This document shows positions 32,032 to 54,916 of a stretch of DNA of 64,000 nucleotides, piece after piece. Each line of letters begins with the position of its first letter. Positions within the stretch are counted from its first letter, which is position 1. Source of the stretch: Mycoplasmatota bacterium (lineage in GTDB: Bacteria; Bacillota_I; Bacilli_A; Mycoplasmatales; MT37). The DNA lies in contig CP138194.1 of assembly GCA_033560715.1 (NCBI GenBank), forward strand, positions 283,494 through 347,493, read 5' to 3'. The position numbers and the translations under genes were made by a program. The notes under the pieces are model-generated. The model saw only the letters and a list, made by a program, of their open reading frames with translations. It made no database searches and was not told the origin of the DNA.

Positions 32032-33621
32032 TTATTTTTGATGATTTAAACACTTATTAATAAAGGTTAAAAATAAAGGGTTAGGGTTTAATGGTCAAGA
32101 AGTTCATTCAGGATGAAATTGGACAGCTACAAAAAAAGGATGATTTTTGAGTTCTAAAATAACCGGAATATTTTGATCGTCACGACCACTGAAAACCAGA
32201 TTATTTTTGATAAAATCAGTTTCAAAAAGATTATTATACTGAAAACGATTTCGAAATCGACCAAATACAGTTGAAGATTGAAAAATTTTTGCTGTTAAAG
32301 TGTTTGGTGTTAATGAAATTTTCTGGACACCAATATTGATATTTTTCATATTTGGATCAAACCAATCAATAATTGGAAATGCTGTTTTAGGATCAAATTC
32401 AGTTGAATTTGCATTCATTTTTTTTAAAACATTACGTGCTAATTCAATTAAAACGAGTTGAAATCCTAAACAAATTCCTAACAACGGAATTTTATTTTTG
32501 CGTGCGTATTCAATTGCAATCATTTTGCCTTCAGTTCCACGTTTTCCAAAACCACCCGGAATCAGAATACCATCGTAACCATTTAATCGTTGTGAAACGT
32601 TTGCAACTGTTAATTCTAATGGATTTATTTCATCGTATACAAAGGCAATTTTATGATAATTGCAAGCAATTAAAAGTGCATGATAAAGCGAAAGATATGA
32701 TTGACGAAAATTAGGATATTTATTAACAATCGCGATTTTAATTGGTTGATTAGTTTTGGCAATTTCAAAATTTTTCGTAATTGTTAATCAACTGTCAGGA
32801 TTTTGATGGTCTTTCAAATTTAAACGTTTACATAAACTATTAAATAGTCCAGATGCTTTAATTGTTTTTGGAATTAAATAAATGTTTTGATCAGGAATTT
32901 GTACTGTTTGATTAGAATCAAGAAAAGTTAGTTTTTGAAATTTGGCCATGATTTCATCGGGAATTATACGATCGCAACGCGCAAAAACAAAATCAGGTTC
33001 AATTGCGTGTTCACGCAATTCTTGAATTGAATGTTGTGCTGCTTTAGTTTTAAATTCTTCAACATGACTTAAAAACGTAATGTAAGTTAAATACGTAAAT
33101 GCGACTTTTTGAACCCCGTATTTACGTTGCATTTGTTTTGCGGCAGTTAAAAAAACCCGAATATCATTATTCGTTACTGTCCCACCAAGTTCGATAATAA
33201 AAATATCAGTAGTTGGATTATCGATGAATAATTTTTCATAACGATCTTTAATTTCAGCAACAACTTGATAAAAATCAATTGTTTTCCCAAGAAACTTGCC
33301 AAGTCGTTCTTTTTTTAGTAATTCTGAATAAATTTGTCCACCGGTAATCAATGATTGACGAGTTAAATTTTGATTTAAAAATCGTTCATAATGCCCTAAA
33401 TCAAGATCAGTTTCTAATCCATCATTAGTAACAAATACTTCACCGTGTTCATTGGGATTTAAAAATCCCGGATCAATATTTAAATAGCTATCATTTTTTT
33501 GAATAATGACGGTGTTATTGTTCTCTTTAAAAAGTTTTCCTAATGAAGCGGCAACTAAACCTTTTCCAATTCCTGAAAAAATACCACCAATAACAAAAAT
33601 AAAACGTTGATTAGATTTCAT
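32032..33621 (-). CDS. pyrG: CTP synthase
   Basis: Fragments 32788..33621 and 32104..32523 are in one frame (529 aa). N-terminus FIFVIGGIFSGIGKG. The glutamine amidotransferase domain has GICLGFQL and FHPE. Confidence 0.95.
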
Positions 33622-33709
33622 ATATTTAATAACTTTTATTTAAAAGAATTAAAAACAATTCACTTTATTAATCGATATCAATAAAATAATTGATTAATAA
33701 ACAAATTAA

Positions 33710-33735
33710 GCACATAAAATGTGCCTAATTTTTTT
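33710..33735. terminator. GCACAT-AAA-ATGTGC hairpin flanked by T-runs on both strands
   Basis: 6-bp GC-containing stem at 33710-33724. On the + strand it is followed by 7 T (33729-33735). On the - strand it is followed by UUAAUUUGUUUAUU. It lies between the tracrRNA candidate and the pyrG start, about 90-110 nt upstream of the pyrG ATG. Confidence 0.4.
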
Positions 33736-33737
33736 AT

Positions 33738-33862
33738 TAAAATAATTTGGGGCTTTTGGGATCCCCAACCCTACAGGTTACTACGAAATGTAGACCTTTA
33801 TCTTATTACTTTAGAAAAAAAGTTAAAACTTCTTTTCTAGTTACCGAATATAATTATATCAT
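33738..33862 (-). ncRNA. Candidate tracrRNA (anti-repeat interrupted by a hairpin)
   Basis: + strand blocks ATCTTATTAC (33800-09) and TAGTTACCGAATATAAT (33838-54) match repeat nt 1-8 and 10-25. On the - strand they are therefore complementary to + strand pre-crRNA. Downstream on the - strand are AAAGGUCUACAUUUCGUAG and a GC-rich hairpin UUGGGG..CCCCAA (33747-68) plus AUUAUUUU. Confidence 0.55.
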
Positions 33863-33909
33863 CAAAAATGATTTTAAAAATATAAAATTAAAATAAATAA
33901 AAATCAAAA

Positions 33910-34806
33910 ATGAGTTGAAAAACAATTGTTGTTCGAATTAGTGATTATCTGTTCTTAAAAAACGGACAATTACATTTTAAACAAGAAAACCAAACCACAG
34001 CGTTTCCAATTAAAGATATTAATTGTATTATCATTGAAAAAACGAATACAAATTTATCTGTCCCTTTATTAAATGCATTAATAAAAGCTAATGTTTATGT
34101 CATTTTTTGTAATGAAAAACATGATCCAAACGGTGTTATTTTACCGTTTCATAATCATTTTCAACCACTAAAGATTTTAAATTATCAACTTGAAATGGGA
34201 AAAAACTTAAAAAAACAAATATGAACAAAATTAATTGAAACAAAGATTCAAAATCAAATTGCCGTTTGTAAAATGTTGAAAATTAATCCCGAAAACATTG
34301 AAAAACAACAAACATTATTGAAAAAATTAATTTTCAATGATCCACAAAATTATGAAGGTATTACAGCGCATTTATTTTTTAAAGCTTTATACGGTAGTAG
34401 TTTTGTTAGACACACTGATGATGGGATTAATTCCGCTTTAAATTATGGTTATAAAATTATTGTTTCAGCAATTTCTCGAACAATTGTAAAGTACGGATTA
34501 TTAAATTATTTGGGAATTCATCACGTTGGTAAAACTAATCAATTTAATTTAGCATATGATTTAATTGAACCGTTTCGACCATTAGTTGATTATTTTGTTA
34601 GTTCGATGGGTGAAGAAATTGACGATTGTTTAATTTATAATCAACGCCTAAAATTAATTAATATTTTAAATTTTAAGGTCCTAATTAAAAATCAACAACA
34701 TACTGTTATAAATGCAATCGAAATAATGATAAATCACTTTGTTCAAACAATTAAAAATAATGATTTTAATACTTTTGTTGTTCCAAAGTTAATTTTTGAA
34801 AATTAA
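33910..34806 (+). CDS. cas1: CRISPR-associated endonuclease Cas1 (type II)
   Basis: ATG at 33910 gives MSWKTIVVRISDYLFLKNGQLHFKQEN... (type II Cas1 N-terminus, W encoded by TGA). It is in frame with fragment 34273..34806 (298 aa). Followed by cas2. Confidence 0.9.
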
Positions 34807-34850: not shown

Positions 34851-35180
34851 ATGAATTCAAGAATTAGAATGATGCGAATTCTTTTAATGTATGATTTACC
34901 AAGTACAACTGTCAAAGCACAGAAAATTTATAATGTTTTTCACAGTTTTTTATTAAAAAATGGTTTTTATATGATTCAAGAATCAATTTATTGTTGTTTT
35001 GCCAAAAGTTATATGACAGCAAAATTAGTTATTAAAAAAGTACAAAAAAATAGTCCGAAAATTGGTGATGTTCGTTGTTTAGTTATCACGGAAAAACAAT
35101 ATCAAGAAATGCATTTTTTTGCTGGTAAACGCAGTTATCAAGAAATGCTTTTTAATCCTGATCCAATTTTAGAAATTTAA
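34851..35180 (+). CDS. cas2: CRISPR-associated endoribonuclease Cas2
   Basis: 109-aa ORF. MRILLMYDLPSTTVKAQKIYNVFHSFLLKNGFYMIQESIY matches the Cas2 ferredoxin-fold N-terminus pattern (LhhYDh...R..F...L...GF..hQ.SVY). Confidence 0.9.
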   Translation: MNSRIRMMRILLMYDLPSTTVKAQKIYNVFHSFLLKNGFYMIQESIYCCFAKSYMTAKLVIKKVQKNSPKIGDVRCLVITEKQYQEMHFFAGKRSYQEMLFNPDPILEI

Positions 35181-35185
35181 TTATT

Positions 35186-36364
35186 ATGAAAACAATTGAA
35201 ATTACTAATCTTCGCTTTGAACGGCAAAAAATTACCTTTGAAGATCGTTTGGCAATCTTAACTGGTCATAATCGATCAGGAAAAACATTAATTTTAGAAC
35301 AAATTGCTGATGCTTTAAAAGAAGGTAGTAATCATGTTTTAATTGATCAACAACCGGTTCAAAGAGGTCAGTTTCAAGTTGCTTATTTATCAAGCGAAAC
35401 ACGATTAAAAGATGAAATCAAATTAACCAAAACAAGTTCGTTTCGTAATCATTTAATTTCCAAAATTAATCATTTATTAATTAATGATCAAAATTATCAA
35501 CAACTTAGTTCGCAAATTGATCAATTAGCAAATAAAATTGAAGAATTAACTAATTTAGCATTAAATCCACACGCTAATGCTTTTACGAATCAAAATATTA
35601 AATTAAAATTTGATACTTCAAAATTTAGTTTGGAAAAAATTGTTGATAAATTATTAAACATAGATTTGATTAATCAAATTAATCAAAATTCACTCGATGA
35701 AAAAAGTTTTAATAGCTTTTTATTAAGAATGGTCGTTTTTAATGTTTTATTGGCAGGTTTAAATTTTACCGATTTACAAAGACCGATTGTGATTTTAATT
35801 GATGATCCAGCAGCGTTTGCAAATTATCAAACTCTTACTGAATTTGCGTTCGAATTAAGAAAGTTATTAAAATTTGAAAATCTTTACATTTGTATTGCAA
35901 CTAGTAATGCTGATTTTGTACAGCAAATGAATTGTAAAATTAGTGCAATTCATTACATTAAAAATCGTCAAATTATTGATTTTAAAAATTATCAAACTAT
36001 TATTGAAAAAGCTATTACCATTTTTAGTTTTTGAAAAAGTACTGACCATCAAAATTGACAGGCATATCAAATTGCATTGAAACCAATTCTTGAAATTGCA
36101 GATTTAGAACGCGAATTTACATTGTTTTGACAAAGTGAATTTTTAAATTGATTTAAAATGTTATTTGCTAATCAAATTACCTTTATTAATGAAAGTGAAT
36201 TAATTAAATTTGATTCGGCTAGTGAAAAATTTAATTTAATTTCACGCTCAAATTATAAAAATCAAATTATATTATTTTGTTTTGCAAAAGCGTTTGAAAT
36301 TAAAACGGTTTTTAGTGAAAAAAATCAACAAAAATATCAAAAAATTAACTTTTTATGAAGTTAG
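35186..36364 (+). CDS. csn2: Csn2-position protein, 392 aa, P-loop NTPase with intact Walker A and B
   Basis: Fragments 35186..36034 and 36158..36358 are in one frame joined by TGA, with TAG at 36362-64. It is the fourth gene after cas1-cas2 and directly before the leader, which is the II-A csn2 slot. Walker A is GHNRSGKT (aa 27-34) and Walker B is IVILIDD (aa 201-207). Confidence 0.7.
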
Positions 36365-36498: not shown

Positions 36499-36527
36499 AC
36501 TTTTTTGGCATGTGTTTTGTTATAATG

Positions 36528-39500
36528 GTCTTATTCAGTTACCAAATTTAATAGAATAAATACTTTTAATAATCTGTTTTGAACCCCCCTGTTAGTCTTA
36601 TTCAGTTACCAAATTTAATAGAATAAATACAACTTTTAATAATCTAAGTCGTGTCCTTTGAGTCTTATTCAGTTACCAAATTTAATAGAATAAATACCTA
36701 CAAACGAATTAAAGGCAAAGGTAATTAGTCTTATTCAGTTACCAAATTTAATAGAATAAATACTTTGTGTTATAAGTGGTAATACATTTGGGTGTCTTAT
36801 TCAGTTACCAAATTTAATAGAATAAATACTATTCATTGTTAAATTCCTTTTGTTTATAAGTCTTATTCAGTTACCAAATTTAATAGAATAAATACGCTTT
36901 TTGTTCGGTTGGTAATTTATCAGTGGTCTTATTCAGTTACCAAATTTAATAGAATAAATACATAATTGAGATTGAAGTGCTTTAACTAATAGTCTTATTC
37001 AGTTACCAAATTTAATAGAATAAATACCATTATTAGCGTCAAGTGGTTTATCATTTTGTCTTATTCAGTTACCAAATTTAATAGAATAAATACTTATTGT
37101 TCTGATAATTGCAAACAAGAACACGTCTTATTCAGTTACCAAATTTAATAGAATAAATACGGCCCCATCAAACGACATTATTTAGTCATAGTCTTATTCA
37201 GTTACCAAATTTAATAGAATAAATACACTTGTTTTATGCCACTGGCGATAGAAATAGTCTTATTCAGTTACCAAATTTAATAGAATAAATACTGGTAGCG
37301 TTGCGAATACACAATTCCAACCGTCTTATTCAGTTACCAAATTTAATAGAATAAATACCTGGCGTTTCATACCCATCTGGTATTCCAGGTCTTATTCAGT
37401 TACCAAATTTAATAGAATAAATACAATGAAAAACAATTAAAAAAAGCTATTCAGGTCTTATTCAGTTACCAAATTTAATAGAATAAATACTCAAAGACAC
37501 GCCATTAGCAAAAATCATTCGTCTTATTCAGTTACCAAATTTAATAGAATAAATACAACGATCGGTGCTGCTGTTGGTGGGTTTATGTCTTATTCAGTTA
37601 CCAAATTTAATAGAATAAATACAATTTCTGTGTTTTCTTTATTTTTTTTGTCGTCTTATTCAGTTACCAAATTTAATAGAATAAATACTAAATAGCATTG
37701 TTACGAATATCTGCTACTGTCTTATTCAGTTACCAAATTTAATAGAATAAATACTAAGCGGCAAGGTGATTGTGCCCAAAACCTGTCTTATTCAGTTACC
37801 AAATTTAATAGAATAAATACTTAAATATCGCAAGGAAGATTTAGAGAGAGGTCTTATTCAGTTACCAAATTTAATAGAATAAATACTTCGTTATTACTTT
37901 CTAATGCTGGTGCTGGGTCTTATTCAGTTACCAAATTTAATAGAATAAATACAAAGTGAAATATTTTTTGAAAAAATAATTGGTCTTATTCAGTTACCAA
38001 ATTTAATAGAATAAATACAGAAGTTATTAACAAGCGAAGAATGAGATGGTCTTATTCAGTTACCAAATTTAATAGAATAAATACAATGACGAAAAACTAC
38101 TATATAGAGAAAGCGTCTTATTCAGTTACCAAATTTAATAGAATAAATACTTAACCGCATTAGGTGTTGGTAAATTACCGGGTCTTATTCAGTTACCAAA
38201 TTTAATAGAATAAATACTTTATTCCTTCAAACTAATATAATTATATTGTCTTATTCAGTTACCAAATTTAATAGAATAAATACTTAGAAGGGTATTTAAT
38301 AACCGCTTTTGTTGTCTTATTCAGTTACCAAATTTAATAGAATAAATACGTAATTCCAGTCATATCACTTGATAAGATTGTCTTATTCAGTTACCAAATT
38401 TAATAGAATAAATACTTGATTATTTTTACCATAGCGCTCCCTTGAGTCTTATTCAGTTACCAAATTTAATAGAATAAATACTTTGTAGCTACACATAAAA
38501 CGAAGCAACAGGTCTTATTCAGTTACCAAATTTAATAGAATAAATACCAATCAGCACGCAATCGTTGAAAAAAACAAGTCTTATTCAGTTACCAAATTTA
38601 ATAGAATAAATACGGGGAAAAAAGGGACTCCAATGACCTATCTGTCTTATTCAGTTACCAAATTTAATAGAATAAATACAATAACTACCACCGCCCGCCC
38701 GAGCGTTATGTCTTATTCAGTTACCAAATTTAATAGAATAAATACATTATTTTTTGTTTTTGAACTCGAAAAATAGTCTTATTCAGTTACCAAATTTAAT
38801 AGAATAAATACGTGTTATTTGTTAATCATTTGCTGATTGCTGTCTTATTCAGTTACCAAATTTAATAGAATAAATACGTTGTAGTGGCCTTAGTCGCTAG
38901 TTTATTAGTCTTATTCAGTTACCAAATTTAATAGAATAAATACTTAGTGTGTTAATCTTTGCTTTATTAGTAGGTCTTATTCAGTTACCAAATTTAATAG
39001 AATAAATACAGCAATTAAGTTTAAGGCGTCTAATCAATCGTCTTATTCAGTTACCAAATTTAATAGAATAAATACTAATAGCAAAGCAAGTTAGAAAGAT
39101 ACAAGGTCTTATTCAGTTACCAAATTTAATAGAATAAATACACATTTAATTATAACTATAAAGAATTATCGGTCTTATTCAGTTACCAAATTTAATAGAA
39201 TAAATACTTAATCATCGTTGATTAAATACTTTTTGCTGTCTTATTCAGTTACCAAATTTAATAGAATAAATACAGAAATATATTATTATGAACAACAACA
39301 ATAGTCTTATTCAGTTACCAAATTTAATAGAATAAATACTTATTATTGTTGTTGTTGGTGTTGGTGTTGGTCTTATTCAGTTACCAAATTTAATAGAATA
39401 AATACGTAATTCCAGTCATATCACTTGATAAGATTGTCTTATTCAGTTACCAAATTTAATAGAATAAATACAAAACTTCCCTATGTTTAATAACCTTCTT

Positions 39501-42500
39501 CGTCTTATTCAGTTACCAAATTTAATAGAATAAATACAAAATTAAAAATGAAGTTAAAGAAAAAAAAGTCTTATTCAGTTACCAAATTTAATAGAATAAA
39601 TACAACTTTTTGAACTTGAAAACGGGAATGTAGGTCTTATTCAGTTACCAAATTTAATAGAATAAATACAAAATAATAAATTTAAAGAATTATTAGAAAG
39701 TCTTATTCAGTTACCAAATTTAATAGAATAAATACTTGTTAAGGGAGTAAATTAAAATAATGGGTGGTCTTATTCAGTTACCAAATTTAATAGAATAAAT
39801 ACACATAAAAAGTCGCCAGTCTAGACAATGGGGTCTTATTCAGTTACCAAATTTAATAGAATAAATACAATGTAATTATGGAGATTACCCAGCATGTTGT
39901 CTTATTCAGTTACCAAATTTAATAGAATAAATACCGTTTGTTTGTTTCTCTGTATTGTTGATTAGTCTTATTCAGTTACCAAATTTAATAGAATAAATAC
40001 AATTGCACCATAAGTATCATCATAATTTACGTCTTATTCAGTTACCAAATTTAATAGAATAAATACTTGACGTTAATTGTGAAAAATGTAACCAATGTCT
40101 TATTCAGTTACCAAATTTAATAGAATAAATACCGATTATTGCGTTAAATGCGGAGCGTGTCCGTCTTATTCAGTTACCAAATTTAATAGAATAAATACTT
40201 GTCGGTGCACCTTCAATTCTTCCTTTTGTCTTATTCAGTTACCAAATTTAATAGAATAAATACCAGTATCATTTAGCGCTTGCTTAGTTAATGGTCTTAT
40301 TCAGTTACCAAATTTAATAGAATAAATACTTTCAATTCACGCAACGAACCAAAAGAAGAGTCTTATTCAGTTACCAAATTTAATAGAATAAATACTCTCT
40401 AATTGTTTTCTAAATTCCATCTCGGGTCTTATTCAGTTACCAAATTTAATAGAATAAATACATTTCAGGGATGTAGTAAAGAATACTTAATGTCTTATTC
40501 AGTTACCAAATTTAATAGAATAAATACTTAACATTGAAGAAGCTAACTCGTCTAATGGTCTTATTCAGTTACCAAATTTAATAGAATAAATACTTTCCTC
40601 CTTCTTACAACAATAATCGCCGTGTCTTATTCAGTTACCAAATTTAATAGAATAAATACATGATGAAGTGTTGTTAAAATATGGTTTCAGTCTTATTCAG
40701 TTACCAAATTTAATAGAATAAATACTTAAATAACAATAATCAACCGCAAGCAGCAAGTCTTATTCAGTTACCAAATTTAATAGAATAAATACAAAAGAAG
40801 TGAGAGCTACATAGATAAAATAGTCTTATTCAGTTACCAAATTTAATAGAATAAATACCAAAACACCCCCTAACGCCTCTCGCCCGCCGTCTTATTCAGT
40901 TACCAAATTTAATAGAATAAATACTTTGCGACAATGAAGAAGAACTTAAGGCGGGTCTTATTCAGTTACCAAATTTAATAGAATAAATACTTTGAGTTGG
41001 GTGTTTAGTAATAGAAGGGTGTCTTATTCAGTTACCAAATTTAATAGAATAAATACTTTGCGATAACAACGAACAATTAACGGCGGGTCTTATTCAGTTA
41101 CCAAATTTAATAGAATAAATACTATTCTAACCCCCCCGTCCCCCTTAACATAGTCTTATTCAGTTACCAAATTTAATAGAATAAATACTCTAAACATCGA
41201 GACGTGAACATATAACACTGTCTTATTCAGTTACCAAATTTAATAGAATAAATACCGTTAAAGTATTTATTACCACCAGCTAATAGTCTTATTCAGTTAC
41301 CAAATTTAATAGAATAAATACAGCGAACAAAATAATTAAGGAAACTGTAGAGTCTTATTCAGTTACCAAATTTAATAGAATAAATACGTATTCAGTGATT
41401 CATTGATTATCTAAAAAGTCTTATTCAGTTACCAAATTTAATAGAATAAATACGCTTTGTTTTTTTTGATCGGAGCAATTTTAGTCTTATTCAGTTACCA
41501 AATTTAATAGAATAAATACAATAATATACCATAATAAAACTTCTTTATCGTCTTATTCAGTTACCAAATTTAATAGAATAAATACTCTAAGTTAATTATT
41601 CCGGCCGGGTAAGTTGTCTTATTCAGTTACCAAATTTAATAGAATAAATACGTAATTAACTTTTTTAGCAAATTTTCCGATGTCTTATTCAGTTACCAAA
41701 TTTAATAGAATAAATACAAAAATTCTGCATCGTTATTTTGAGTTGTCGTCTTATTCAGTTACCAAATTTAATAGAATAAATACTTTTAACATTACCAAAC
41801 ATAAACTGGACAAGTCTTATTCAGTTACCAAATTTAATAGAATAAATACTACCTGATGGTAATACAAAATTAGATGTTTGTCTTATTCAGTTACCAAATT
41901 TAATAGAATAAATACAAAATTCGATAAAACAGGAGATGTTAGCTAGTCTTATTCAGTTACCAAATTTAATAGAATAAATACAAAGCGCTTGGTCTTCAAA
42001 GTCCTGATACTGTCTTATTCAGTTACCAAATTTAATAGAATAAATACAAAATCTAATGGGATATATAATTTTTGATAAGGTCTTATTCAGTTACCAAATT
42101 TAATAGAATAAATACGATGATTATATAAATGAACTGGTTCCGCATGTCTTATTCAGTTACCAAATTTAATAGAATAAATACCCTCCGTCTAAATTATAAG
42201 TCATTCCAATAGTCTTATTCAGTTACCAAATTTAATAGAATAAATACGAAAGCAAATAGTGATTACACAACTCATATCGTCTTATTCAGTTACCAAATTT
42301 AATAGAATAAATACCCTTAACCACCATTTTAGTCATATAGCTCAGTCTTATTCAGTTACCAAATTTAATAGAATAAATACAAACATTAACCGATTGCGAC
42401 CTGTTATCAGGTCTTATTCAGTTACCAAATTTAATAGAATAAATACTTTATAAAGAAATTGAAAAAATTAAAAAAGGTCTTATTCAGTTACCAAATTTAA

Positions 42501-45500
42501 TAGAATAAATACCAGTCGTTTTAGAGATAAAAAGTACATCGTGTCTTATTCAGTTACCAAATTTAATAGAATAAATACTAAACTACTCCGTTAGTAAAGA
42601 TGTTTTAAGGTCTTATTCAGTTACCAAATTTAATAGAATAAATACTTTAGAATATTTAATTACTAATAAAATACTGTCTTATTCAGTTACCAAATTTAAT
42701 AGAATAAATACTTGGGAAAATAAAACTCGCATTTACTTATGGTCTTATTCAGTTACCAAATTTAATAGAATAAATACTTTCCACTTTCTCACATGATTGG
42801 GTTATAAGGTCTTATTCAGTTACCAAATTTAATAGAATAAATACTTAAAAAAATGAAAATGGTGAAAAAATAAAGTCTTATTCAGTTACCAAATTTAATA
42901 GAATAAATACTGTAAAAGAATACTACGATACACCATTCCTGTCTTATTCAGTTACCAAATTTAATAGAATAAATACAACAAAAAAAGGATGAATATGTCA
43001 CTTTTAGTCTTATTCAGTTACCAAATTTAATAGAATAAATACGCCGACGAGAGACGCCACGCTCAGGACTGGGTCTTATTCAGTTACCAAATTTAATAGA
43101 ATAAATACACGCTTAACGAGCAAGTAATTGGTTACCAAGTCTTATTCAGTTACCAAATTTAATAGAATAAATACCAAGGAAACACTGGACCAACTGGAAT
43201 AGCGGGTCTTATTCAGTTACCAAATTTAATAGAATAAATACAAAAGATATTAACTAGTGAAGAATGAGACAAGTCTTATTCAGTTACCAAATTTAATAGA
43301 ATAAATACTGAAGTTTCTAAACCAGTATTTAATAACACGTCTTATTCAGTTACCAAATTTAATAGAATAAATACTTTCTAAAAGTAATATATTTATTGCT
43401 GATAGTCTTATTCAGTTACCAAATTTAATAGAATAAATACCATTTTTGAATTTTCTAAATCTAATTCTTTGTCTTATTCAGTTACCAAATTTAATAGAAT
43501 AAATACCATCTTTACTAACGCCTTAGTTTAACGATTGTCTTATTCAGTTACCAAATTTAATAGAATAAATACGACCTTTATCGGGAGGATTAGGATCATG
43601 AGGTCTTATTCAGTTACCAAATTTAATAGAATAAATACTAATTAGTAGCTTGATTACTAATTTGGAGTGTCTTATTCAGTTACCAAATTTAATAGAATAA
43701 ATACGCTTTGGATCTTTAATGTTTGAATACCCGAGTCTTATTCAGTTACCAAATTTAATAGAATAAATACCAATATAAAAGATATCAACATTAGAAAGTT
43801 GTCTTATTCAGTTACCAAATTTAATAGAATAAATACTAATTAACATTTTATTACTATCATAAAAGAGTCTTATTCAGTTACCAAATTTAATAGAATAAAT
43901 ACGTTGGAAGTTGCTCCACAGGAGACGAAATGGTCTTATTCAGTTACCAAATTTAATAGAATAAATACAAAATGACAAACCGCTTGACGCTAATAATGGT
44001 CTTATTCAGTTACCAAATTTAATAGAATAAATACCCAATATTCATTTCTTCGAGTTTGAACTGTGTCTTATTCAGTTACCAAATTTAATAGAATAAATAC
44101 GGCGTTAATTTTTTATATATACATATGGAAGTCTTATTCAGTTACCAAATTTAATAGAATAAATACTTAATTCTAACCCATGAGCACCAAAAACAGGTCT
44201 TATTCAGTTACCAAATTTAATAGAATAAATACACGACATTGCTTATTCGCGACCAATAACATGTCTTATTCAGTTACCAAATTTAATAGAATAAATACTG
44301 TTGCTCCTGTTTGACGGCATTCGCAATATGTCTTATTCAGTTACCAAATTTAATAGAATAAATACTTGCGATAACAACGAACAATTAACGGCGGAGTCTT
44401 ATTCAGTTACCAAATTTAATAGAATAAATACCAGTTGGTCCAGTTGGTCCAGTGTTTCCTTGTCTTATTCAGTTACCAAATTTAATAGAATAAATACTTT
44501 CTAAAAGTAATATATTTATTGCTGATAGTCTTATTCAGTTACCAAATTTAATAGAATAAATACCTTTTTTCTGCCGCTTCAATTTTTTGTTCTGTCTTAT
44601 TCAGTTACCAAATTTAATAGAATAAATACACTTATTTTGTTAATCACTTTGTTTATGTTGTCTTATTCAGTTACCAAATTTAATAGAATAAATACTTTTA
44701 TCTCTTTGTGAATTCGTAAATTCACGTCTTATTCAGTTACCAAATTTAATAGAATAAATACAATGATGAAAGAAAGAATGAGATAAATATAGTCTTATTC
44801 AGTTACCAAATTTAATAGAATAAATACTTTAACTTTAATATTAAAAATGGTTTTATGGTCTTATTCAGTTACCAAATTTAATAGAATAAATACTAATAAA
44901 ACAATCAATATTGAACTGGTCACGTCTTATTCAGTTACCAAATTTAATAGAATAAATACTTAATAATTTTTTATATATTTAATATCGCAGTCTTATTCAG
45001 TTACCAAATTTAATAGAATAAATACAACGCCTTAATGAACCATACACGAATTATTGTCTTATTCAGTTACCAAATTTAATAGAATAAATACTTGTCTCAT
45101 CAAGTTTTAAAACTTTTACCAGTCTTATTCAGTTACCAAATTTAATAGAATAAATACATTTAATAGCGTTTGTTATTCGTGTTGCGTGTCTTATTCAGTT
45201 ACCAAATTTAATAGAATAAATACATAGAGTGCGTGGAAATAGTCATTAAAAGGGTCTTATTCAGTTACCAAATTTAATAGAATAAATACATAACATTAAA
45301 TTAAATGTTGTTTGAATTAGTCTTATTCAGTTACCAAATTTAATAGAATAAATACCAAAATTTACTAAAATCTATTCATCAACAAGTCTTATTCAGTTAC
45401 CAAATTTAATAGAATAAATACCAAAAATTCTAAATTTGAAAACAAATATTGGTCTTATTCAGTTACCAAATTTAATAGAATAAATACTTGTTGCTACATT

Positions 45501-48500
45501 TACTAATTATAATGATAGTCTTATTCAGTTACCAAATTTAATAGAATAAATACCATTGGGGAACTATATACCAAGAAAAAGTAGTCTTATTCAGTTACCA
45601 AATTTAATAGAATAAATACTTTTAGTTCCTTGAACAAATAATTGAACTCGTCTTATTCAGTTACCAAATTTAATAGAATAAATACAGGCGTTTGTTCGTT
45701 TAGATAATGATAATTGTCTTATTCAGTTACCAAATTTAATAGAATAAATACTTTAGCTCAAGCCGTTAAATCACCGTGTTTGTCTTATTCAGTTACCAAA
45801 TTTAATAGAATAAATACATTGTTTGTTCTCAAAATTTATTAGTTTCAGTCTTATTCAGTTACCAAATTTAATAGAATAAATACACCATATTAAATTTAAA
45901 AATGCATATTTGGGTCTTATTCAGTTACCAAATTTAATAGAATAAATACTTAATTATAATAATTTTCATATAAATAAATGTCTTATTCAGTTACCAAATT
46001 TAATAGAATAAATACGAATATCGCCAGTGTCTAATCGCTCTACAAGTCTTATTCAGTTACCAAATTTAATAGAATAAATACATATTATAGCTAACATCAA
46101 CTTTTTTTATAGTCTTATTCAGTTACCAAATTTAATAGAATAAATACATTAGTTTTCAGTTCTTTTAGATAAACTCAGTCTTATTCAGTTACCAAATTTA
46201 ATAGAATAAATACTTTTTATTTAATGAATATCCACATTCACTGGTCTTATTCAGTTACCAAATTTAATAGAATAAATACAATACAAATTCAGTATAAATA
46301 CAAATTGAAGTCTTATTCAGTTACCAAATTTAATAGAATAAATACTGCAAACAAATTTTAGTTGTTAATGTTAAAGTCTTATTCAGTTACCAAATTTAAT
46401 AGAATAAATACAGGTAAAGATAATGGTTAATTTTGTGCGTCGTCTTATTCAGTTACCAAATTTAATAGAATAAATACTTAAACCATATATTAAACAAGCA
46501 GCACCAAGTCTTATTCAGTTACCAAATTTAATAGAATAAATACATAATAATAATAATAATAGTAAAAATTATTGGAGTCTTATTCAGTTACCAAATTTAA
46601 TAGAATAAATACTGATTCCTGTCGTGTTATTTGAAACTCCAAGTCTTATTCAGTTACCAAATTTAATAGAATAAATACTGGTCCGCTCAAATTGTCGCCG
46701 CAATTTGTGTCTTATTCAGTTACCAAATTTAATAGAATAAATACCAAAATATACCCCACCAAAACGTAATTGGTGTCTTATTCAGTTACCAAATTTAATA
46801 GAATAAATACGTATCGTGTCCCACTCACAGCGTCTATTTCGTCTTATTCAGTTACCAAATTTAATAGAATAAATACTTTCTTTTAATACTGGTTGTTCGT
46901 TTTGCAGTCTTATTCAGTTACCAAATTTAATAGAATAAATACTGGAAAACAAAAAAGCAAATAAAATAATTGGTCTTATTCAGTTACCAAATTTAATAGA
47001 ATAAATACATAGATAGCGTGGAAATAAGCCTTAAAGGGGTCTTATTCAGTTACCAAATTTAATAGAATAAATACATAATTATCAAAGCACAGACAGAGAA
47101 TGTAGTCTTATTCAGTTACCAAATTTAATAGAATAAATACATAGCGGTTAATCCAACCAACAAACGAGCCGTCTTATTCAGTTACCAAATTTAATAGAAT
47201 AAATACATGCTTTTATTGTTTTGTGCGGTGGGAGAGGTCTTATTCAGTTACCAAATTTAATAGAATAAATACTAAAAAAACCAGCCTGGACATTTCAAAG
47301 TAGTCTTATTCAGTTACCAAATTTAATAGAATAAATACTTAATTGATTTTTTGATTCAAAAAGAAGGGGTCTTATTCAGTTACCAAATTTAATAGAATAA
47401 ATACGTAATTAACTTTTTTTGCAAATTTTCCTAAGTCTTATTCAGTTACCAAATTTAATAGAATAAATACCTTCTTTTAATGCTTCTTCGATTAATTCGT
47501 GTCTTATTCAGTTACCAAATTTAATAGAATAAATACTCGCTCGTCTCTTTCAATTGCTCCACTGTTGTCTTATTCAGTTACCAAATTTAATAGAATAAAT
47601 ACTTAAAGTGAATCATATATTCACTAATATTAGTCTTATTCAGTTACCAAATTTAATAGAATAAATACAACTGGTTAAATTACCCCAGAACCCCCTTTGT
47701 CTTATTCAGTTACCAAATTTAATAGAATAAATACTTAAATATAGTAATGTAATTGATTTAGAAAGTCTTATTCAGTTACCAAATTTAATAGAATAAATAC
47801 GAATATCTCCCGTATCTAATCTTTCGACAAGGTCTTATTCAGTTACCAAATTTAATAGAATAAATACTAGTAAAATATTAAGTAAAGCGTGAAGCAAGTC
47901 TTATTCAGTTACCAAATTTAATAGAATAAATACTCTCCTAATACAGCTCACATTGTTAGATGTCTTATTCAGTTACCAAATTTAATAGAATAAATACAAT
48001 ATTCGTTTGTTCCAAAAACAACAGGCTGTCTTATTCAGTTACCAAATTTAATAGAATAAATACATAAAGTCTTTCATAGTTTTTATCTCCTTTGTCTTAT
48101 TCAGTTACCAAATTTAATAGAATAAATACGAATATCTCCCGTATCTAATCTTTCGACTAGTCTTATTCAGTTACCAAATTTAATAGAATAAATACCAAAT
48201 TTTGTCTTTTGAAGTGAAATATACAGTCTTATTCAGTTACCAAATTTAATAGAATAAATACTCCATTTATTAAATCAGTCGAACACTGATAGTCTTATTC
48301 AGTTACCAAATTTAATAGAATAAATACAAGTTTGAATAATCAAGATTAAACGAACAAGTCTTATTCAGTTACCAAATTTAATAGAATAAATACCAGCTGC
48401 GGAAATAGTCGAGTGCGTCAATTGTCTTATTCAGTTACCAAATTTAATAGAATAAATACTTCTAATTCAAGGTTTAACTCCTTTACTGAGTCTTATTCAG

Positions 48501-49778
48501 TTACCAAATTTAATAGAATAAATACACCTTAAAAAAGCAAACGAAGCAAAAAGTGTCTTATTCAGTTACCAAATTTAATAGAATAAATACATTTTGGCAT
48601 CTAACAACATCGTCAAAATGGTCTTATTCAGTTACCAAATTTAATAGAATAAATACATTATTACAACCGCTTTAATCAATCATTAGGTCTTATTCAGTTA
48701 CCAAATTTAATAGAATAAATACGAAAAACAGCAACGAAACAAACGAAATTGCGTCTTATTCAGTTACCAAATTTAATAGAATAAATACAAAAAATATTAA
48801 CTAGTGAAGAATGAGATGGTCTTATTCAGTTACCAAATTTAATAGAATAAATACGAGTTTATAACCGCTTGACAGTCCGCCAAAGTCTTATTCAGTTACC
48901 AAATTTAATAGAATAAATACTATTTTAGTATCAAATTGAAGTCCGACGGAGTCTTATTCAGTTACCAAATTTAATAGAATAAATACTGTTTGCGGACAAG
49001 TTTGTTAATTACTTAGGTCTTATTCAGTTACCAAATTTAATAGAATAAATACTCGAATTACTCGAAGAACTAAGTCCTTATCGTCTTATTCAGTTACCAA
49101 ATTTAATAGAATAAATACCGCTAAAAGTCGCCAGTCTAGATAAGTAGGGTCTTATTCAGTTACCAAATTTAATAGAATAAATACTTTTTAGCAGGTTGTG
49201 CTGTTCGTTTTGTTGTCTTATTCAGTTACCAAATTTAATAGAATAAATACAGAAGGTATATTACGACCTTCTTTTAATGTGTCTTATTCAGTTACCAAAT
49301 TTAATAGAATAAATACGAATTAAAACTTAAACAATTAAAATTAGAGGTCTTATTCAGTTACCAAATTTAATAGAATAAATACAAGCAACTGAAATTTTTA
49401 TGGCCCGTGGTGGTCTTATTCAGTTACCAAATTTAATAGAATAAATACACTAAATTAAGCAAGTTAATCGGCGTTAGTCGTCTTATTCAGTTACCAAATT
49501 TAATAGAATAAATACAACCAAATTATCCTTTACCAAAACATATATGTCTTATTCAGTTACCAAATTTAATAGAATAAATACGAAATTCTTCTGCTTTAGT
49601 GGGTTCAACAAGTCTTATTCAGTTACCAAATTTAATAGAATAAATACATTTAAATAAAAAGTCATACGGACATGTTAGTCTTATTCAGTTACCAAATTTA
49701 ATAGAATAAATACTATCAGTTGCTATTTCTACTTCGTCTTGTAGTCTTATTCAGTTACCAAATTTAATAAATAAATAC
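36528..49778 (+). CRISPR. Type II-A CRISPR array, about 201 repeats of 36 nt and about 200 spacers
   Basis: The repeat is GTCTTATTCAGTTACCAAATTTAATAGAATAAATAC. The first copy is at 36528-36563. The period is 66 nt (spacers 29-33 nt, mostly 30). Every repeat I read is identical except the last (49744-49778), which lacks the G of AATAGAAT. (49744-36528)/66 = 200.2. Polarity is set by the csn2-side leader and the degenerate distal repeat. Confidence 0.97.
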
Positions 49779-49797
49779 TTTAATATAATTTATTTCG

Positions 49798-50958
49798 TTA
49801 TCTGGAAAAAATTATCACCATTATTATTACTACTACTACAATGTAAAAAAAGTTTTGTATGACAACTTTGTTTTTTCTTGTTTTGTGTTTTTTGTTATAA
49901 CACTCTTTACAAAAAAGAGTATTGGTTAATGGTCTTATTCCAAATTTTAATAATTCGCTTTTTGGAAATGTATTAAAACATTCGTTGCATTTTCCTGTTC
50001 TTAATTTTAAGCGTTTTTGTCCTTTAGATTCTAAAATATTAATTAAAACTTCTTGTCGTTGTGATTGTAAATTTATTTCATATTTAATTGTTTGTATCAT
50101 TTTTAATTTTTCTGTTAATTGATCTTTGGTGATTGGTTTCAATTTATCTAACTGTTCTTCCATTTGTTTAACTTTGATCTTTGAATTGTTTAATTTTTTG
50201 GTGAAAAATGGTATTGTTTTTGAAATAATATTACTACAATATCGTTCATATATGTTGTGTTTATTATATTCTGTTGTTAATACTTTACTATCTTGCATAT
50301 TCATTCAATTATCAAAGTCTTTTATTTGTCAATAAATTCATTCGTTCATTACTTCGTTGTTTTTTAAAGCGTTAATAATTGTTTCTTTTCTCTGTTGTGA
50401 TTTTTTTATTTTTTGTTTTTCTACTTTCTTTATTAAAAGTTCGTCTTTTGAATAACGAATATATCTCATATATTTGAATTCATAATTGAATATTCCATTA
50501 AATCCTTGCCTTTCAGAGTTGTATTTGGTTATATATGTTTGTTCTTTTTCTTCAATTGTGAAAATATCTAAATTTTTATAATTAGGAATAAATTCTAAAA
50601 TTTCAAACTTAACATTTTCCAAACTTAAATTAAACTCTATTAATTTCATAAATAATTTTTGATAAAAAGCATAATTAGCACTAACCGAATTGAATTTAAT
50701 AAAATTAATTAAATAATTTGTAAAATTTTTATATTCGCCCGTATCTTTAATCAAACGTTTATCGTTATTTAATGTCGCATTAATTAATGTTTTATGTTTG
50801 CTTAATCTAGCATAAATATTAACACTTATACCAATATACGATTGTTGATTTTGTGTTTTGGGATTGGTTATGAAAATTCTATAAATTCCGCTGGATTTTA
50901 ATTTGGTCTTTGTATCTTTATCTAAATTATGTAATTCAATTAAATTAAATGTATTCAT
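49798..50958 (-). CDS. I-TevI-like GIY-YIG homing endonuclease with C-terminal CxxC..CxxC zinc ribbon and hydrophobic tail
   Basis: ORF-track fragments 50338..50958 and 49798..50304 are in one frame joined by three TGA codons (386 aa). GIY at aa 24-26, YIG at aa 41-43, and ARLSKH. FEILEFIPNYKNLDIFTIEEKEQTYITKYNSERQGFNGI resembles the I-TevI catalytic-core end. Also has CNEC..x19..CKEC. Confidence 0.8.
49932..49955 (+). repeat. Decayed CRISPR repeat beyond the trailer, inside the GIY-YIG ORF
   Basis: GTCTTATTC-CAAATTTTAATA matches GTCTTATTC[AGTTAC]CAAATTT-AATA, that is 20 ordered matches with a 6-nt deletion and a 1-nt insertion. The reading is confirmed by ORF-track protein 49922..50122 (..NGLIPNFNN..). 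Confidence 0.6.
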
Positions 50959-51127: not shown

Positions 51128-54100
51128 CTAGATAACTTTACCTAATAAATCGACCTCTATTAATGATCATTTATTTTTGAAAAGATTAGAAACGCTATCA
51201 ACAGAATTATTAAAATTAAAAATTTTTTGTGTTTTGTCAGTCGATTTTGTAAGAGAATTAACTGATAAGTAAGCTTTTTTTTCATCTTTTCTGGAAAAAA
51301 AGCATTTCACAATATATTTGCCGTTTTTTTTAAGATTTTTATTATAAATTTTATTGTCGTAGTATTTAATTAATTTATTATGAAGTAATATTTTGGAATA
51401 ATCTTGAAATAAATTTTTGTTTTTTTTGGCATCATAAATAGAAATTCATTCATATTGATTTTTTTGTTGATTGCTGGAATCTAATTTTTGTAAAGGTGTT
51501 TTTAAGCCATAAAAACGTTTAATTTCAATAATATTACCAACTTTACCATCAACATTACCTGATGTTATAAATGGTTTAGATTTATTTTTTGGATCTTTTC
51601 AATTACAAAACTCAATTATTCAATTATTAAAATAATCATTACTAAAATAAATGTTATTTATTTGGTTTTTGGCATCTGTGTAAGTAATTTTATTATTTCG
51701 CAATCATAAGCGAAATAGTTTATTTTTTGATTTTTCTAAAATAGTTTTTTTTGGATTCGGTAATCCATTCAAAACAAAACCTAAATTTTCACTACTTGAA
51801 ATTTGACCACGGACTTTGTAACGCACCATTCGTGAAATGTGTGGATAATGCAAATCAATATTAGTAGTATCTAAATCTTTGGTTGCAATTTTTCATTCTT
51901 CTTCATTTAAAACATTAACATATTTTGGTAATTTACGACTCCCATTACAGTTTTGACATGCTAAATTTAGAATTTTTTTAGTTTCGGTATCAAAACACTT
52001 ACAATCAAGAATTTCTAATTCGACTGGAATACGCTTTTCTAATTGGTTTTGAAAATCATCAATGTATAAATTATTAACAAATTGATTTTTCCGATCAGCT
52101 AAATAAATTCTTTCCATGTATTCGTTAACATTGTAAAAACGTTTTTTTTGATCGTTTTTCGAAGCTGTTTTTAACGTTTTAATTTTATTTTTAATACTTT
52201 CCATAAACGCATTTTTATTTGCTAAAGCATTTGTTAATTTAGTTGGATTTCCTTCTGATTCAAATCGGTCAATTGCGGTTTTTAAATCTTTTAATTTAAT
52301 TAAATCAACTGCTAATTCAATATCCATTTTCTTTTTAAATTGACATAAAATACTTGCATCAATTGCATGATGGAATGGAGAAATATCACGTACTTTTTGA
52401 TCTAATCCTCAAGCAGAAGACGCTAATCATTTACGACGTAAACGTGATATCACTTGACCAACAACCGCAAAAACATTCGTTTTGATTTGGTGATTTTTAA
52501 ATTCTGATAATAAATAATTGTGAATGTATTTTGAAATGTAACGAGTGTCATTTAAATTACGACTAGCAAAGCCTTCGACTGCTTCTTCGACCGTTTTTGC
52601 TAATAAATAATTCGTTTTCGTTTTACCTAAATAATTTTCTAATTTATGAATTCGCATTGTAAATGTTTTTCAATTATTTTTTAAATATTGATACGGAATT
52701 TGTTGACCTTTTTGCTGATTTTCTTCAGTTAAAACCAAAACTTTATTATTTCGACTATCATCAGCACTTCAACTACGAGGAATAATATGATCGATTTCAA
52801 CCATTTTATCGACTGGATTAATATCTTTTAAATCAATTGTTTTTCCAGAATAAATGCATTGTTTGTTTTGTTGTTCTCAAAGTAAATAAGCTAAAATCGT
52901 TTTTTGATTTTGAGGAATATTGTTTTCTGCAAGTTTTTGAATTATTGCAATTTTTTTCTTTAAGTTTTTATCTTGTGCTTGTTCAATTTTATTACGATCT
53001 TTGGCTGATTTATAAATATCACGTCCAACTTCAACAGCAATGTTTTCAAATTGAGTGTATTTTTTATGTAATGCTTTTAAAATTAGTCGGGTTTGATTAA
53101 TTGCTCGAAATACAACTGGATTTGATGTCATTTCTAAATCAGTAAATTTAGCAAATAGTTTTTTTGAATTGCTATTTTTTTTAAATCGGGTTTGAATAAC
53201 TTCGTCTTGTTGTTTAACTTTTTCAGCTTGAAAATCAGCAAAATTAATTCCTTTTAAATACGCTTGAATGGCTTCTTTCATAAATTGGAAAGATACATTG
53301 GCAGGAGAAGTGACTAACTTTGGTGATAAAAATTGATTCATTGTTTTTGCATCAAATTTAATTTGAAATTTATTTAATAAATTTTCAATTGCTTTTTTAC
53401 GACGATGCGGCGTTATTCAACGACTAGTAAATGATCCAATTTGAGAAATTAAATTCTTTTCTCATTGATCAATGTTTTTTTCATTAATAGTAATTTTAGT
53501 TAAAAAGGGTTTTAAAGTTGAAGTTTCTCAACATGTTTTAAAAAAACTTGGGCGTTTTAATTCTAAACCACTTGATTTTTCACTTTGTCAAATTTTAATT
53601 TTTTTTGAATCGAGCAAATCTTTGTTACCATGAATTTTTCAAGCTGCACTTGCTTGAATGGCAATTTGAATTAACTTAATTGCTGCACGACGATCTTTTC
53701 AATCACTAGTTAACATTTGTTGTAAAACAGATTGTTTTTCAGTTGGAGTTAAAATTAATTTATGATTAGCTAAAATATTTCAAATCTTTGATAATTCATT
53801 AACATAATAGAAAACAGTAAATAAAATTGAAGCTTTCGTTCCACGATTTTCGGTTGGATAAAAATGACATTTTCCAGTCATATCTCAAAAAATACCAAAA
53901 TTTGAACAGTGTTTGTTTTTGCATTTGTGAAGTTGATTTTGATATGAATCAGGTGAATCAATCATTACTTTAGTACAATCATTACATTTCGCTCCCATTT
54001 CAAAATCACGACTTTGAAAAATAATTTTAATGATTTTTTCGCAATTTTCATTTGTTAATTCTTTCGGATAATATTGTTTTTGTTTTGATAAAATTGTTTT

Positions 54101-54916
54101 TGCTTCGTTTTGATAATCTTGGCGATCAAATAAATGACGAAAATTAATTCGTTTTGATAATTCATCACGTTGTTTTTTATCAATAACACTATTAACATCA
54201 ATATATTTTTTATATTGATCAGATTTAGATTTTTTATAAACTAATTTTGAACTATTTTTTGTAAATAAAATTCGGGTTGTTTTTGATGCTGATAAATGAA
54301 ATTGTGAATCTTGAATAACTGCTTTTGCAATTGATTGGTATTTTTTAATTAATTCCGAAGCTTTATTAGCTGAATCAGTTAATTTGGTTGTTTTCGCTTT
54401 TGTTGTTTTATCGTCTTTGCTTTGATTTTCATCATTTTCCAAACTAAACTTATCAGCATAACCACGTTTTTTGGCATAATTAATTAAAACGACATACAAT
54501 TCGTCTTTACTTAATTTATAATCTAATCCCTTTGCTTTTAAAACATACGGATTAAAATAACCGGATTCAGTTGTTCATTGATTGTTTTGAAACACAATTT
54601 TATTAGTTACTTTAAATTGGGTTTGAAAATTATCAATAAACGCTTGTTTATCAAATAAATTAATTTGATTAAGATGGCGTTTTAACATTTCTAAACGATG
54701 GAAACGTCGACGAATTAAACGTCGCGTTGAACGAAATTCACGGCGTTTAGTTGCTAAAGAAGTTTTTGTTTTACTTTCTTCAGCCACATCAAATAAACGC
54801 ACACCAAAATCATGCAAAGTGTGTTTGCCGGTTGTAACATCTTCGGCCATTACTGCTCAACCAACCGAGCTAATTCCTAGATCTAATCCAAGATAATATT
54901 TTAAATTTTTTGTCAT
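51128..54916 (-). CDS. cas9: CRISPR-associated endonuclease Cas9 (type II-A), 1262 aa
   Basis: AAAGAGG SD then ATG at 54914-16: [22 protein letters not shown] (RuvC-I). Fragments 54575..54850, 53885..54499, 52877..53341, 52427..52657 and 51893..52327 share one frame. HNH is [20 protein letters not shown], followed by NDTRYISKY and HHAIDASI (RuvC-III). I translated every codon from 51892 to the TAG at 51128-30 and found no TAA/TAG. Confidence 0.92.

Follow-up and report, generated by a model that had tools for sequence, protein, structure and literature searches.

A candidate type II-A tracrRNA whose anti-repeat is split by a conserved hairpin in a mollicute CRISPR locus

Introduction

Can the part of a trans-activating CRISPR RNA (tracrRNA) that pairs with the CRISPR repeat be divided in two by a hairpin of its own? 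The question is raised by a 64,000-nucleotide (nt) stretch of a Mycoplasmatota genome (contig CP138194.1; hereafter, the window, to whose numbering all coordinates refer unless another locus is named). In the intergenic region between pyrG and cas1, a first-pass annotation made from the sequence alone had proposed a minus-strand tracrRNA with such an interrupted anti-repeat. In published descriptions, mollicute tracrRNAs have a lower and an upper stem, with or without a bulge between them, then an AA junction, a nexus whose first bases are often GGC, and a terminator (PMC6882279), and surveys of Cas9 guides report that stem lengths, bulges and spacing vary (PMC7606464). A summary of Cas9 duplexes describes them as a simple stem of 25–40 base pairs (bp) containing a small bulge and contrasts them with those of Cas12, which are discontinuous (PMC11246509), and the guide of Cas9d, though unusual, also has a plain P1 duplex (PMC12339737). 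Here, we follow up the candidate by RNA folding, by searches of the window, and by comparison with related genomes. We put at roughly 80% the probability that this minus-strand RNA is the tracrRNA of a type II-A system, with a conserved hairpin splitting its anti-repeat.

Results

A candidate minus-strand RNA next to cas1 can pair with both parts of the repeat

The window has a G+C content of 28%, and its long open reading frames (ORFs) are unbroken only if TGA is read as Trp (code 4), which together identify it as mollicute DNA; the homologues of its Cas9 are mollicute Cas9 proteins. Its CRISPR locus is a rearranged type II-A system with cas9, cas1, cas2, csn2 and an array of 36-nt repeats. 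The repeat, GTCTTATTCAGTTACCAAATTTAATAGAATAAATAC, is identical in 200 of 201 copies. The plus strand between pyrG and cas1 reads ATCTTATTAC (33800–33809), GAAAAAAAG-TTAAAA-CTTCTTTTC (33814–33837) and TAGTTACCGAATATAAT (33838–33854), and all strings and coordinates of the first-pass annotation were exact on re-reading. In the minus-strand RNA, the complement of the first string (block 1, GUAAUAAGAU) faces repeat nt 1–8 with a G1:U pair and seven Watson-Crick pairs, and C9 of the repeat can also pair with the 5' G of GUAAUAAGAU across a 1-nt bulge. The complement of the last string (block 2) pairs with repeat nt 10–16, 18–20 and 22–25; 14 of 16 pairs are kept up to nt 25. A pair table thus confirmed the two-block pairing as first proposed. 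Downstream of the anti-repeat the minus strand continues with AAAGGUCUACAUUUCGUAG and then GGGUUGGGGAUCCCAAAAGCCCC, and the G+C content of the candidate is above that of the genome. The candidate is divergent from cas1, as had been claimed; it lies 48 nt upstream of cas1 and outside the array.

A tracrRNA usually meets its repeat in one continuous stem with a small bulge at most, but here a 28-nt hairpin-forming insert separates the two strands. This is the point of difference; a continuous stem is the usual form, not a functional requirement. In the modeled complex, the insert occupies the exact site of the canonical bulge on the tracrRNA side. Its 9-bp core can be extended to 12 bp and includes one G:U pair. 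No second copy of the insert was found in the window, and we rejected the idea of a repeated or mobile element on the ground of this uniqueness.

When the repeat and the candidate were folded together with RNAcofold, the three-way junction envisaged by the first-pass annotation was the minimum-energy structure in the window and in two related lineages, L003 and L004 (described below). For the window pair, the junction reached -41.5 kcal/mol and the contiguous alternative -32.5 kcal/mol, a difference of 9 kcal/mol in favor of the junction.

The element is conserved in three other lineages and covaries with the repeat

Searches with Cas1 and Cas9 yielded a graded series of related genomes. In three strains of the same species (L013–L015) the candidate is identical, the sole difference being one nucleotide inserted in the tail in one of them. 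The order pyrG, candidate, cas1 is kept in three further lineages, a 399-kb Mycoplasmatales metagenome-assembled genome (L001), a jellyfish metagenome (L003) and a 412-kb contig (L004), whose Cas1 and Cas9 are 70–75% and 43–48% identical, respectively, to those of the window. By two-sequence alignment, the flanking intergenic DNA has little similarity between lineages.

The minus strands of the four lineages have a common anatomy. An extended -10 box, TGnTAnAAT, is followed 7–9 nt on by GGUAAC (GGCGA in L001) and by the insert; then come G-N-AAUAAGAU (G-A-AAUAAAAC in L001), AA(A), and a nexus stem-loop that starts with GGC, CGC or AGGU. The 3' part consists of (C)GAAGGG-N-GGGGA(A)UCCC-N-CCCC (GUAGGG in the window), an A/U-rich tail, GCACAU..AUGUGC and a U-rich run. 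The motif GGG-N2-3-GGGG-A(A)U-CCC-N5-13-CCCC was found in four of four lineages and at no other locus among the fetched L001–L012. At 33749–33771 and at the homologous sites of L001, L003 and L004, this motif also allows two crossing helices, that is, an H-type pseudoknot, and contains the palindrome GGATCC. The G/C-rich 3' domain may fold either as a hairpin or as a small pseudoknot; its motif is invariant and offers no covariation.

All four lineages have a hairpin of 9–13 bp at the same position, with unrelated sequences and with insert lengths of 28 nt in the window and 30–38 nt in L001, L003 and L004. In the window, L001, L003 and L004, respectively, the hairpins have 12, 10, 13 and 12 pairs, of which 1, 2, 5 and 3 are G:U, and folding energies of -10.7, -6.8, -13.8 and -11.5 kcal/mol (z = -6.3, -2.1, -3.8 and -4.7 against shuffles). 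Their plus-strand versions reach only -6.9, -4.5, -2.6 and -1.3 kcal/mol because the G:U pairs form only in minus-strand RNA, as had been pointed out for the single G:U pair of the window. These pairs therefore fix the minus strand as the coding strand, and the persistence of a hairpin among unrelated sequences indicates selection on structure, not on sequence. RNAalifold, given a plain MAFFT alignment built on sequence only, recovered part of the hairpin and the terminator, with two-sided changes in 4 of 32 predicted pairs.

The repeat of L001 (GUUUUAUUCAGUCGCC, against GUCUUAUUCAGUUACC in the other lineages) has diverged, and its tracrRNA has changed in step. In the lower stem of L001, GAAAUAAAAC faces repeat GUUUUAUU, a compensatory change from C3:G to U3:A. 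In the upper stem, the change of the repeat from UUACC to UCGCC is matched by that of the tracrRNA from GGUAA to GGCGA, so that U13:A becomes C13:G and A14:U becomes G14:C. Three two-sided compensatory pairs between repeat and anti-repeat thus separate L001 from the other lineages. A fourth change lies in the nexus (AA-GGC..GCC in L003 and L004, AA-CGC..GCG in L001, AAA-AGGU..ACCU in the window), where the first pair goes from G-C to C-G in L001, again compensatory. Covariation in relatives, which the first-pass annotation had suggested looking for, is therefore present.

In the next clade out (L005, L006 and L011; Cas1 63% identical), neither a convincing anti-repeat nor a GGGGAUCCC domain was found in the 44 kb fetched. 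A scan of Joint Genome Institute metagenomes with Cas1 peptides gave no match. The pattern of the 3' domain had 28 matches in these metagenomes, 27 of them in GC-rich DNA (47–72% GC) and one in a contig of 31% GC (L043); all look like chance matches because none has the flanking features of the tracrRNA. In two outgroup loci, L008 (4592–4661) and L009 (4634–4703), the best repeat-complementary site lies at a similar position on the minus strand inside dnaN, probably as a chance effect of a common A/T-rich coding segment.

The array is read on the plus strand, and the candidate has predicted promoter and terminator signals of its own

The 3' end of the array leader, TGTTATAATG, lies one base before the first repeat and contains a promoter of the extended -10 type. 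TGnTATAATG stands at the matching leader position in L004, L005, L012 and L013, including a locus in which the array is inverted relative to cas1. At the other end, the last repeat (49744–49779) is a lone degenerate copy with a 1-nt deletion. The conserved leader promoter and the degenerate repeat in last place indicate that the array is read on the plus strand; a tracrRNA carrying the complement of the 5' part of the repeat must then be encoded, at the candidate site, by the minus strand. Every window repeat also contains a -10-like TAGAAT, 6 nt from its 3' end, and the repeats of L005, L007, L008 and L009 contain TAAAAT or TAAGAT. Repeat-internal promoters are known from the type II-C systems of Neisseria and Campylobacter, and they are a possibility here.

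A predicted extended -10 box, TGATATAAT, precedes the candidate and is of the same type as the leader promoter. The distance from such a TGnTAnAAT box to the downstream GGUAAC is 7 nt in the window, L003 and L004; in L001, GGCGA follows the box after 9 nt. The bases in between differ. From this arrangement, the primary 5' end may fall near 33847–33845 (~33846), at the GG of GGUAAC. Upstream, a weaker promoter-like site (TTGATT-17-TATATT, 33907–33879, minus strand) could yield a longer form that starts at ~33872 and includes all of block 2. The tracrRNA of S. pyogenes has two promoters. The first-pass annotation had treated the whole of block 2 as RNA. The core facing nt 10–16 lies downstream of the predicted start; the part facing nt 18–25 overlaps the predicted -10 box and, with a start at ~33846, may be promoter DNA, which would leave an upper stem of ~7 bp.

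At the 3' end, the first-pass annotation had pointed to the G/C-rich hairpin followed by AUUAUUUU, which is one possible 3' end among others. This domain and its U-rich run may end some transcripts, but a stronger and clearer intrinsic terminator follows at 33731–33703. Its GCACAU..AUGUGC stem is common to L001, L003 and L004, in each of which it is followed by U7.

Pairing statistics within the window are weak

Several results weigh against the tracrRNA reading. A wobble-tolerant two-block pattern of 6 + 8 nt occurs four times in the window and about twice per shuffle. For the Watson-Crick core GGTAAC..(≤60 nt)..AATAAGAY there is one occurrence in the window, and 4.3% of shuffles contain it. 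The candidate ranks about 10th of 3060 windows by net co-folding energy (z = -3.5). Without the relatives, then, the pairing within the window exceeds chance only marginally. The lower stem contributes about -6 kcal/mol and net binding amounts to about -12 to -13 kcal/mol, which is weak in absolute terms; in L001, block 1 of the free tracrRNA preferentially pairs with the RNA's own tail. Covariation counts are small, with four independent lineages, and the search for a better anti-repeat covered the 64-kb window of the genome. No Rfam family reached its gathering score anywhere in the window. The strings and the hairpin of the first-pass annotation are real, but the case it made from the window alone is carried by the comparison with relatives: the observation is solid because the element is conserved, with compensatory change, in three other lineages.

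At E ≤ 10, Rfam returned no CRISPR-related family for 33600–33950, only chance microRNA-like matches on the terminator hairpin. Any tracrRNA model in Rfam is, to our knowledge, built on Streptococcus-type sequences, so the lack of a match is weak negative evidence. Local alignment of the repeat against the window at the DNA level did not separate the candidate (score 26) from background (24–26). In RNAduplex and co-folding scans, several sites inside ORFs outscored the candidate, and the contiguous anti-repeat-like sites from the energy scans that we examined all lay inside ORFs. The best, in the cas9 messenger RNA (51566–51625, -18.6 kcal/mol), was rejected as a chance match because neither L010, whose repeat is the same, nor any of the other lineages has it in cas9. 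A site in arcB (60311–60400, -23.3 kcal/mol by RNAduplex) left the top ranks once self-structure was counted.

The A/U-rich tail complements the 3' half of the repeat in relatives

After the G/C-rich domain, the tail of L001, L003 and L004 (UUAUUCUAUUAAAAA) is exactly complementary to the 3' half of the repeat over 16–18 nt (L001 7775–7795; L003 and L004 ~9795–9822, minus strand). In these lineages, the tail:repeat duplex is worth -14.5 to -16.3 kcal/mol (z = -5 to -9), against -5.1 kcal/mol in the window, where the tail (AAAUUAUUUUAAUAAAA) is degenerate. At 17–18 bp it is by far the strongest contact in L001, L003 and L004 and the only one of classical RNase III substrate length. In the window lineage, by comparison, the tail has decayed and the complementarity at the 5' end is the longest. 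The few substitutions in the tail do not covary with the repeat, and on the plus strand the tail contains a -10-like box pointing at cas1 (TAAAAT in the window, TAGAAT in the relatives). The tail could be read as a third segment of the anti-repeat, as a relic left by an origin in antisense transcription of a repeat-spacer-repeat unit, as a linker that Cas9 contacts, or as a plus-strand -10 element toward cas1.

Under the first of these, the anti-repeat of the clade's tracrRNA would have three segments in partly permuted order, would hold the 36-nt repeat along its whole length and, with the inserted hairpin, would form a multi-helix junction around each repeat: the 5' end of the RNA would face repeat nt 10–16, the middle nt 1–9, and the conserved 3' tail nt 17–34. 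In that case the 3' end of the tracrRNA, and not its 5' end, would provide the duplex for processing. Such a layout is the expected product of antisense transcription of a repeat-spacer-repeat unit. We regard this reading as doubtful.

Gene content and variation of the locus

Features of the locus are collected in Table 1. The gene order is rearranged, with cas9 inverted beyond the array and 17 kb from the candidate; the first-pass annotation had described cas9 as missing from this side, and indeed none lies beside the candidate, but it is present elsewhere in the window.

Table 1. Features of the CRISPR locus and of the candidate RNA in the window.
Feature	Position	Strand	Remarks
pyrG	32032–33621	-	code-4 ORF
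Candidate tracrRNA	33702–33864	-	between pyrG and cas1
Intrinsic terminator hairpin	33703–33731	-	AAAUUAGGCACAU-UUU-AUGUGCUUAAUUU, then U-rich run; terminator scan
A/U-rich tail	33732–33748	-	AAAUUAUUUUAAUAAAA; degenerate in the window
G/C-rich 3' domain	33749–33771	-	GGG-UU-GGGG-AU-CCC-AAAAG-CCCC
AA(A) junction and nexus	33775–33799	-	AGGU-CUAC-AUUUC-GUAG-UA-ACCU
Lower-stem strand (block 1)	33800–33809	-	GUAAUAAGAU; 8 bp with repeat nt 1–8
Inserted hairpin	33812–33839	-	core GAAAAGAAG/CUUUUUUUC (33837–33814), loop UUUA
Upper-stem strand (block 2)	33838–33854	-	core GGUAACU (33845–33839) against repeat nt 10–16
Distal part of block 2	33846–33854	-	against repeat nt 18–20 and 22–25; overlaps promoter region
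Predicted extended -10, TGATATAAT	33861–33853	-	TG 33861–33860, TATAAT 33858–33853
cas1	33910–34806	+	code-4 ORF; Pfam Cas1
cas2	34851–35180	+	code-4 ORF; Pfam Cas2
csn2	35186–36364	+	392 amino acids; PADLOC Csn2, E = 7e-43, full length
Leader	between csn2 and array		163 bp
Leader promoter, TGTTATAAT	36518–36526	+	ends 1 nt short of first repeat
CRISPR array	36528–49779	+	201 repeats of 36 nt, 30-nt spacers
ORF	49798–50958	-	386 amino acids; between array and cas9
cas9	51128–54916	-	1262 amino acids; HNH_4 and RuvC_III domains
argS, then arginine deiminase pathway genes	after cas9		

The array, at 13.25 kb, makes up ~3% of the genome if the ~420 kb of the related strain L010/L013 is taken as its size. 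The csn2 product is of the long form; its Walker A motif (GHNRSGKT) is apparently intact, and it has weak RecF, ABC and PtuA-like ATPase matches beside the full-length PADLOC match. The protein encoded by the ORF between the array and cas9 matches GIY-YIG weakly at its N-terminus and a CxxC..CxxC zinc finger at its C-terminus, and has a hydrophobic tail. The closely related strain L010 lacks this ORF, and its array comes immediately after cas9. In L014, of the same species, genes for a DNA methylase and a ThaI-like restriction enzyme (6717–8305) follow csn2 in place of the leader and array. L001 and L012 belong to one genome, in which the order is cas9-cas2-csn2-array; cas1 is split from cas2 there and stands, together with the tracrRNA, in inverted orientation at the far end; pyrG and argS flank the CRISPR locus both there and in the window.

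The Cas9 of L010 (P0121) is 86% identical to that of the window overall, and near-identical over the first ~1050 amino acids but strongly divergent in the C-terminal part, which interacts with the protospacer-adjacent motif (PAM). The C-terminal ~200 amino acids of the window Cas9 (51128–51800) resemble the L001 lineage more, while in the strain L010/L013 the tracrRNA region is identical and the repeat is the same. This pattern suggests that the PAM-interacting domain has been swapped by recombination. In an alignment of Cas9 proteins, no large insertion was confined to the clade with the split anti-repeat.

Discussion

The candidate has the hallmarks of a tracrRNA that can be computed, namely its position in the locus, its strand, covariation with the repeat, an AA junction and nexus, a 3' domain, and a terminator. 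We propose that a minus-strand RNA running from ~33846 (or ~33872 in a longer form) to ~33703 acts as the tracrRNA of this system. GUAAUAAGAU would pair with the first 8–9 nt of each repeat as the lower stem, directly next to the AA junction and nexus, while the 5' GGUAACU would pair with repeat nt 10–16 as the upper stem, an upper stem that a longer transcript would extend to nt 25. The ~28 nt between the two strands would fold on themselves into a hairpin of 9–12 bp, which would make the repeat:anti-repeat module a three-way junction with an extra helix at the position of the tracr-side bulge. Cas9 would accommodate this helix in binding the junction, the nexus and the G/C-rich 3' domain, and RNase III would be expected to process the duplex with the repeat.

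How far the upper stem extends depends on where the RNA starts. If transcription begins at the GG of GGUAAC, the upper stem would be confined to ~7 bp. The distal half of block 2 would be promoter DNA that resembles the repeat because it is A/T-rich or derives from a repeat, and the hairpin would supply most of the helical mass that a long upper stem provides in other systems. We give this version slightly less than an even chance. It agrees with the fixed spacing between box and GGUAAC over intervening bases that vary, with the promoter of the same kind in the array leader, and with the poor complementarity beyond repeat nt 16 in L003 and L004; moreover, the short form still co-folds to the junction (-38.3 kcal/mol, net binding -12.1 kcal/mol). 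On the other hand, the pairs that the window keeps up to repeat nt 25 exceed the needs of a promoter, the second promoter-like site could give the longer form, and the start site is itself a prediction. Much harder to sustain is a tracrRNA with a contiguous duplex, in which the 5' end of the repeat would lie on the 5' arm of the insert (GAAAAGA), the hairpin would be unformed and GUAAUAAGAU would be a spare copy. RNAduplex does find this pairing in the window (-15.4 kcal/mol, repeat nt 2–9 against GAAAAGA directly after GGUAACU), but with the whole RNA folded it loses to the junction by the 9 kcal/mol given above and leaves ~40 nt between duplex and nexus. The 5' arms of the inserts of L003 and L004, read by eye, have no evident complementarity to the repeat, whereas the succession of GUAAUAAGAU, AA and nexus is conserved, and we consider a contiguous duplex very improbable.

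Two further explanations dispense with a working tracrRNA at this site. The blocks resemble a degenerate repeat, the statistics within the window are weak and the search was confined to it, all of which would fit a decayed repeat or an old tracrRNA remnant without function, the working tracrRNA lying elsewhere in the genome. Four lineages, however, keep the element between flanks of little similarity; the compensatory changes follow each lineage's own repeat, promoter, nexus and terminator are conserved, and hairpins persist through complete sequence turnover. We therefore give a remnant very little credence. The location between pyrG and cas1, the plus-strand -10-like box in the tail and the presence of pyrG next on the minus strand could instead point to a 5' leader of a plus-strand cas1 operon, or to a minus-strand pyrG leader or attenuator, with an incidental match to the repeat. 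Against this, the G:U pairs restrict the hairpins and the terminator to the minus strand, changes in the anti-repeat blocks track those in the repeat, the terminator separates the candidate from pyrG, and no Rfam leader family matches; of the explanations weighed here, it seems to us the least credible. A tracrRNA with a hairpin-split anti-repeat thus remains our preferred reading.

Compared with known type II-A tracrRNAs, such as that of S. pyogenes and those predicted for Mycoplasma and Spiroplasma (Ipoutcha et al., 2019; PMC6882279), the candidate is alike in its position beside cas genes, its own promoter, its succession of lower stem, interruption and upper stem, its AA junction and nexus from GG(C), its 3' hairpin(s), its intrinsic terminator and a G+C content above that of the genome. 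It differs in that the interruption is not a bulge of a few nt but 28–38 nt with a helix of 9–13 bp, that the upper stem is perhaps only 6–8 bp, that cas9 lies 17 kb away across the array, and that Rfam has no match. Separate tracrRNA segments also contact the repeat in Cas12 systems with discontinuous pairing (pseudoknots in Cas12b, f, g and l; a triple helix in Cas12e and k; PMC11246509), but effector family and RNA fold are unrelated, and the likeness is an analogy only. Full-text literature searches for split, bipartite or interrupted anti-repeats returned nothing relevant, and we have not found this shape of guide RNA described for Cas9.

The bulge between lower and upper stems is regarded as among the most constrained parts of a Cas9 guide, and work by Briner et al. 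in 2014 reportedly found this region to be functionally critical. Engineered single guide RNAs tolerate MS2 aptamer hairpins in the tetraloop and stem-loop 2. Those protruding helices are artificial and sit at helix tips, whereas that of the candidate is natural and sits at the bulge between two stems. An outgroup mollicute (L007, CP022929.1; Cas1 52% and Cas9 29% identical) likewise has cas9, cas1, cas2 and a long csn2, with a related repeat beginning GTCTTATTTATTTG, but its tracrRNA candidate lies just downstream of cas9 and forms a contiguous 29-bp duplex with the repeat. This contrast suggests that the hairpin insertion is derived and arose within the clade of the window. The organisms appear to be Oceanoplasmataceae-like. 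They resemble that recently described family in living with marine invertebrates, in a genome size of ~0.4 Mb, in having an arginine pathway and in the very large size of their arrays; the paper describing the family makes no mention of a tracrRNA (PMC11535214).

Standard finders seek one contiguous anti-repeat near cas9 and would therefore miss the tracrRNA in these genomes. If our reading is correct, it would add a class of guide RNA to the catalogue from which single guide RNAs are designed for new Cas9 orthologues, and would indicate a site where aptamers or other cargo could be inserted as nature has done. A whole helix that is kept at the bulge in four lineages despite the turnover of its sequence would mean that a three-way junction there is tolerated, or even used, by the Cas9 of this clade.

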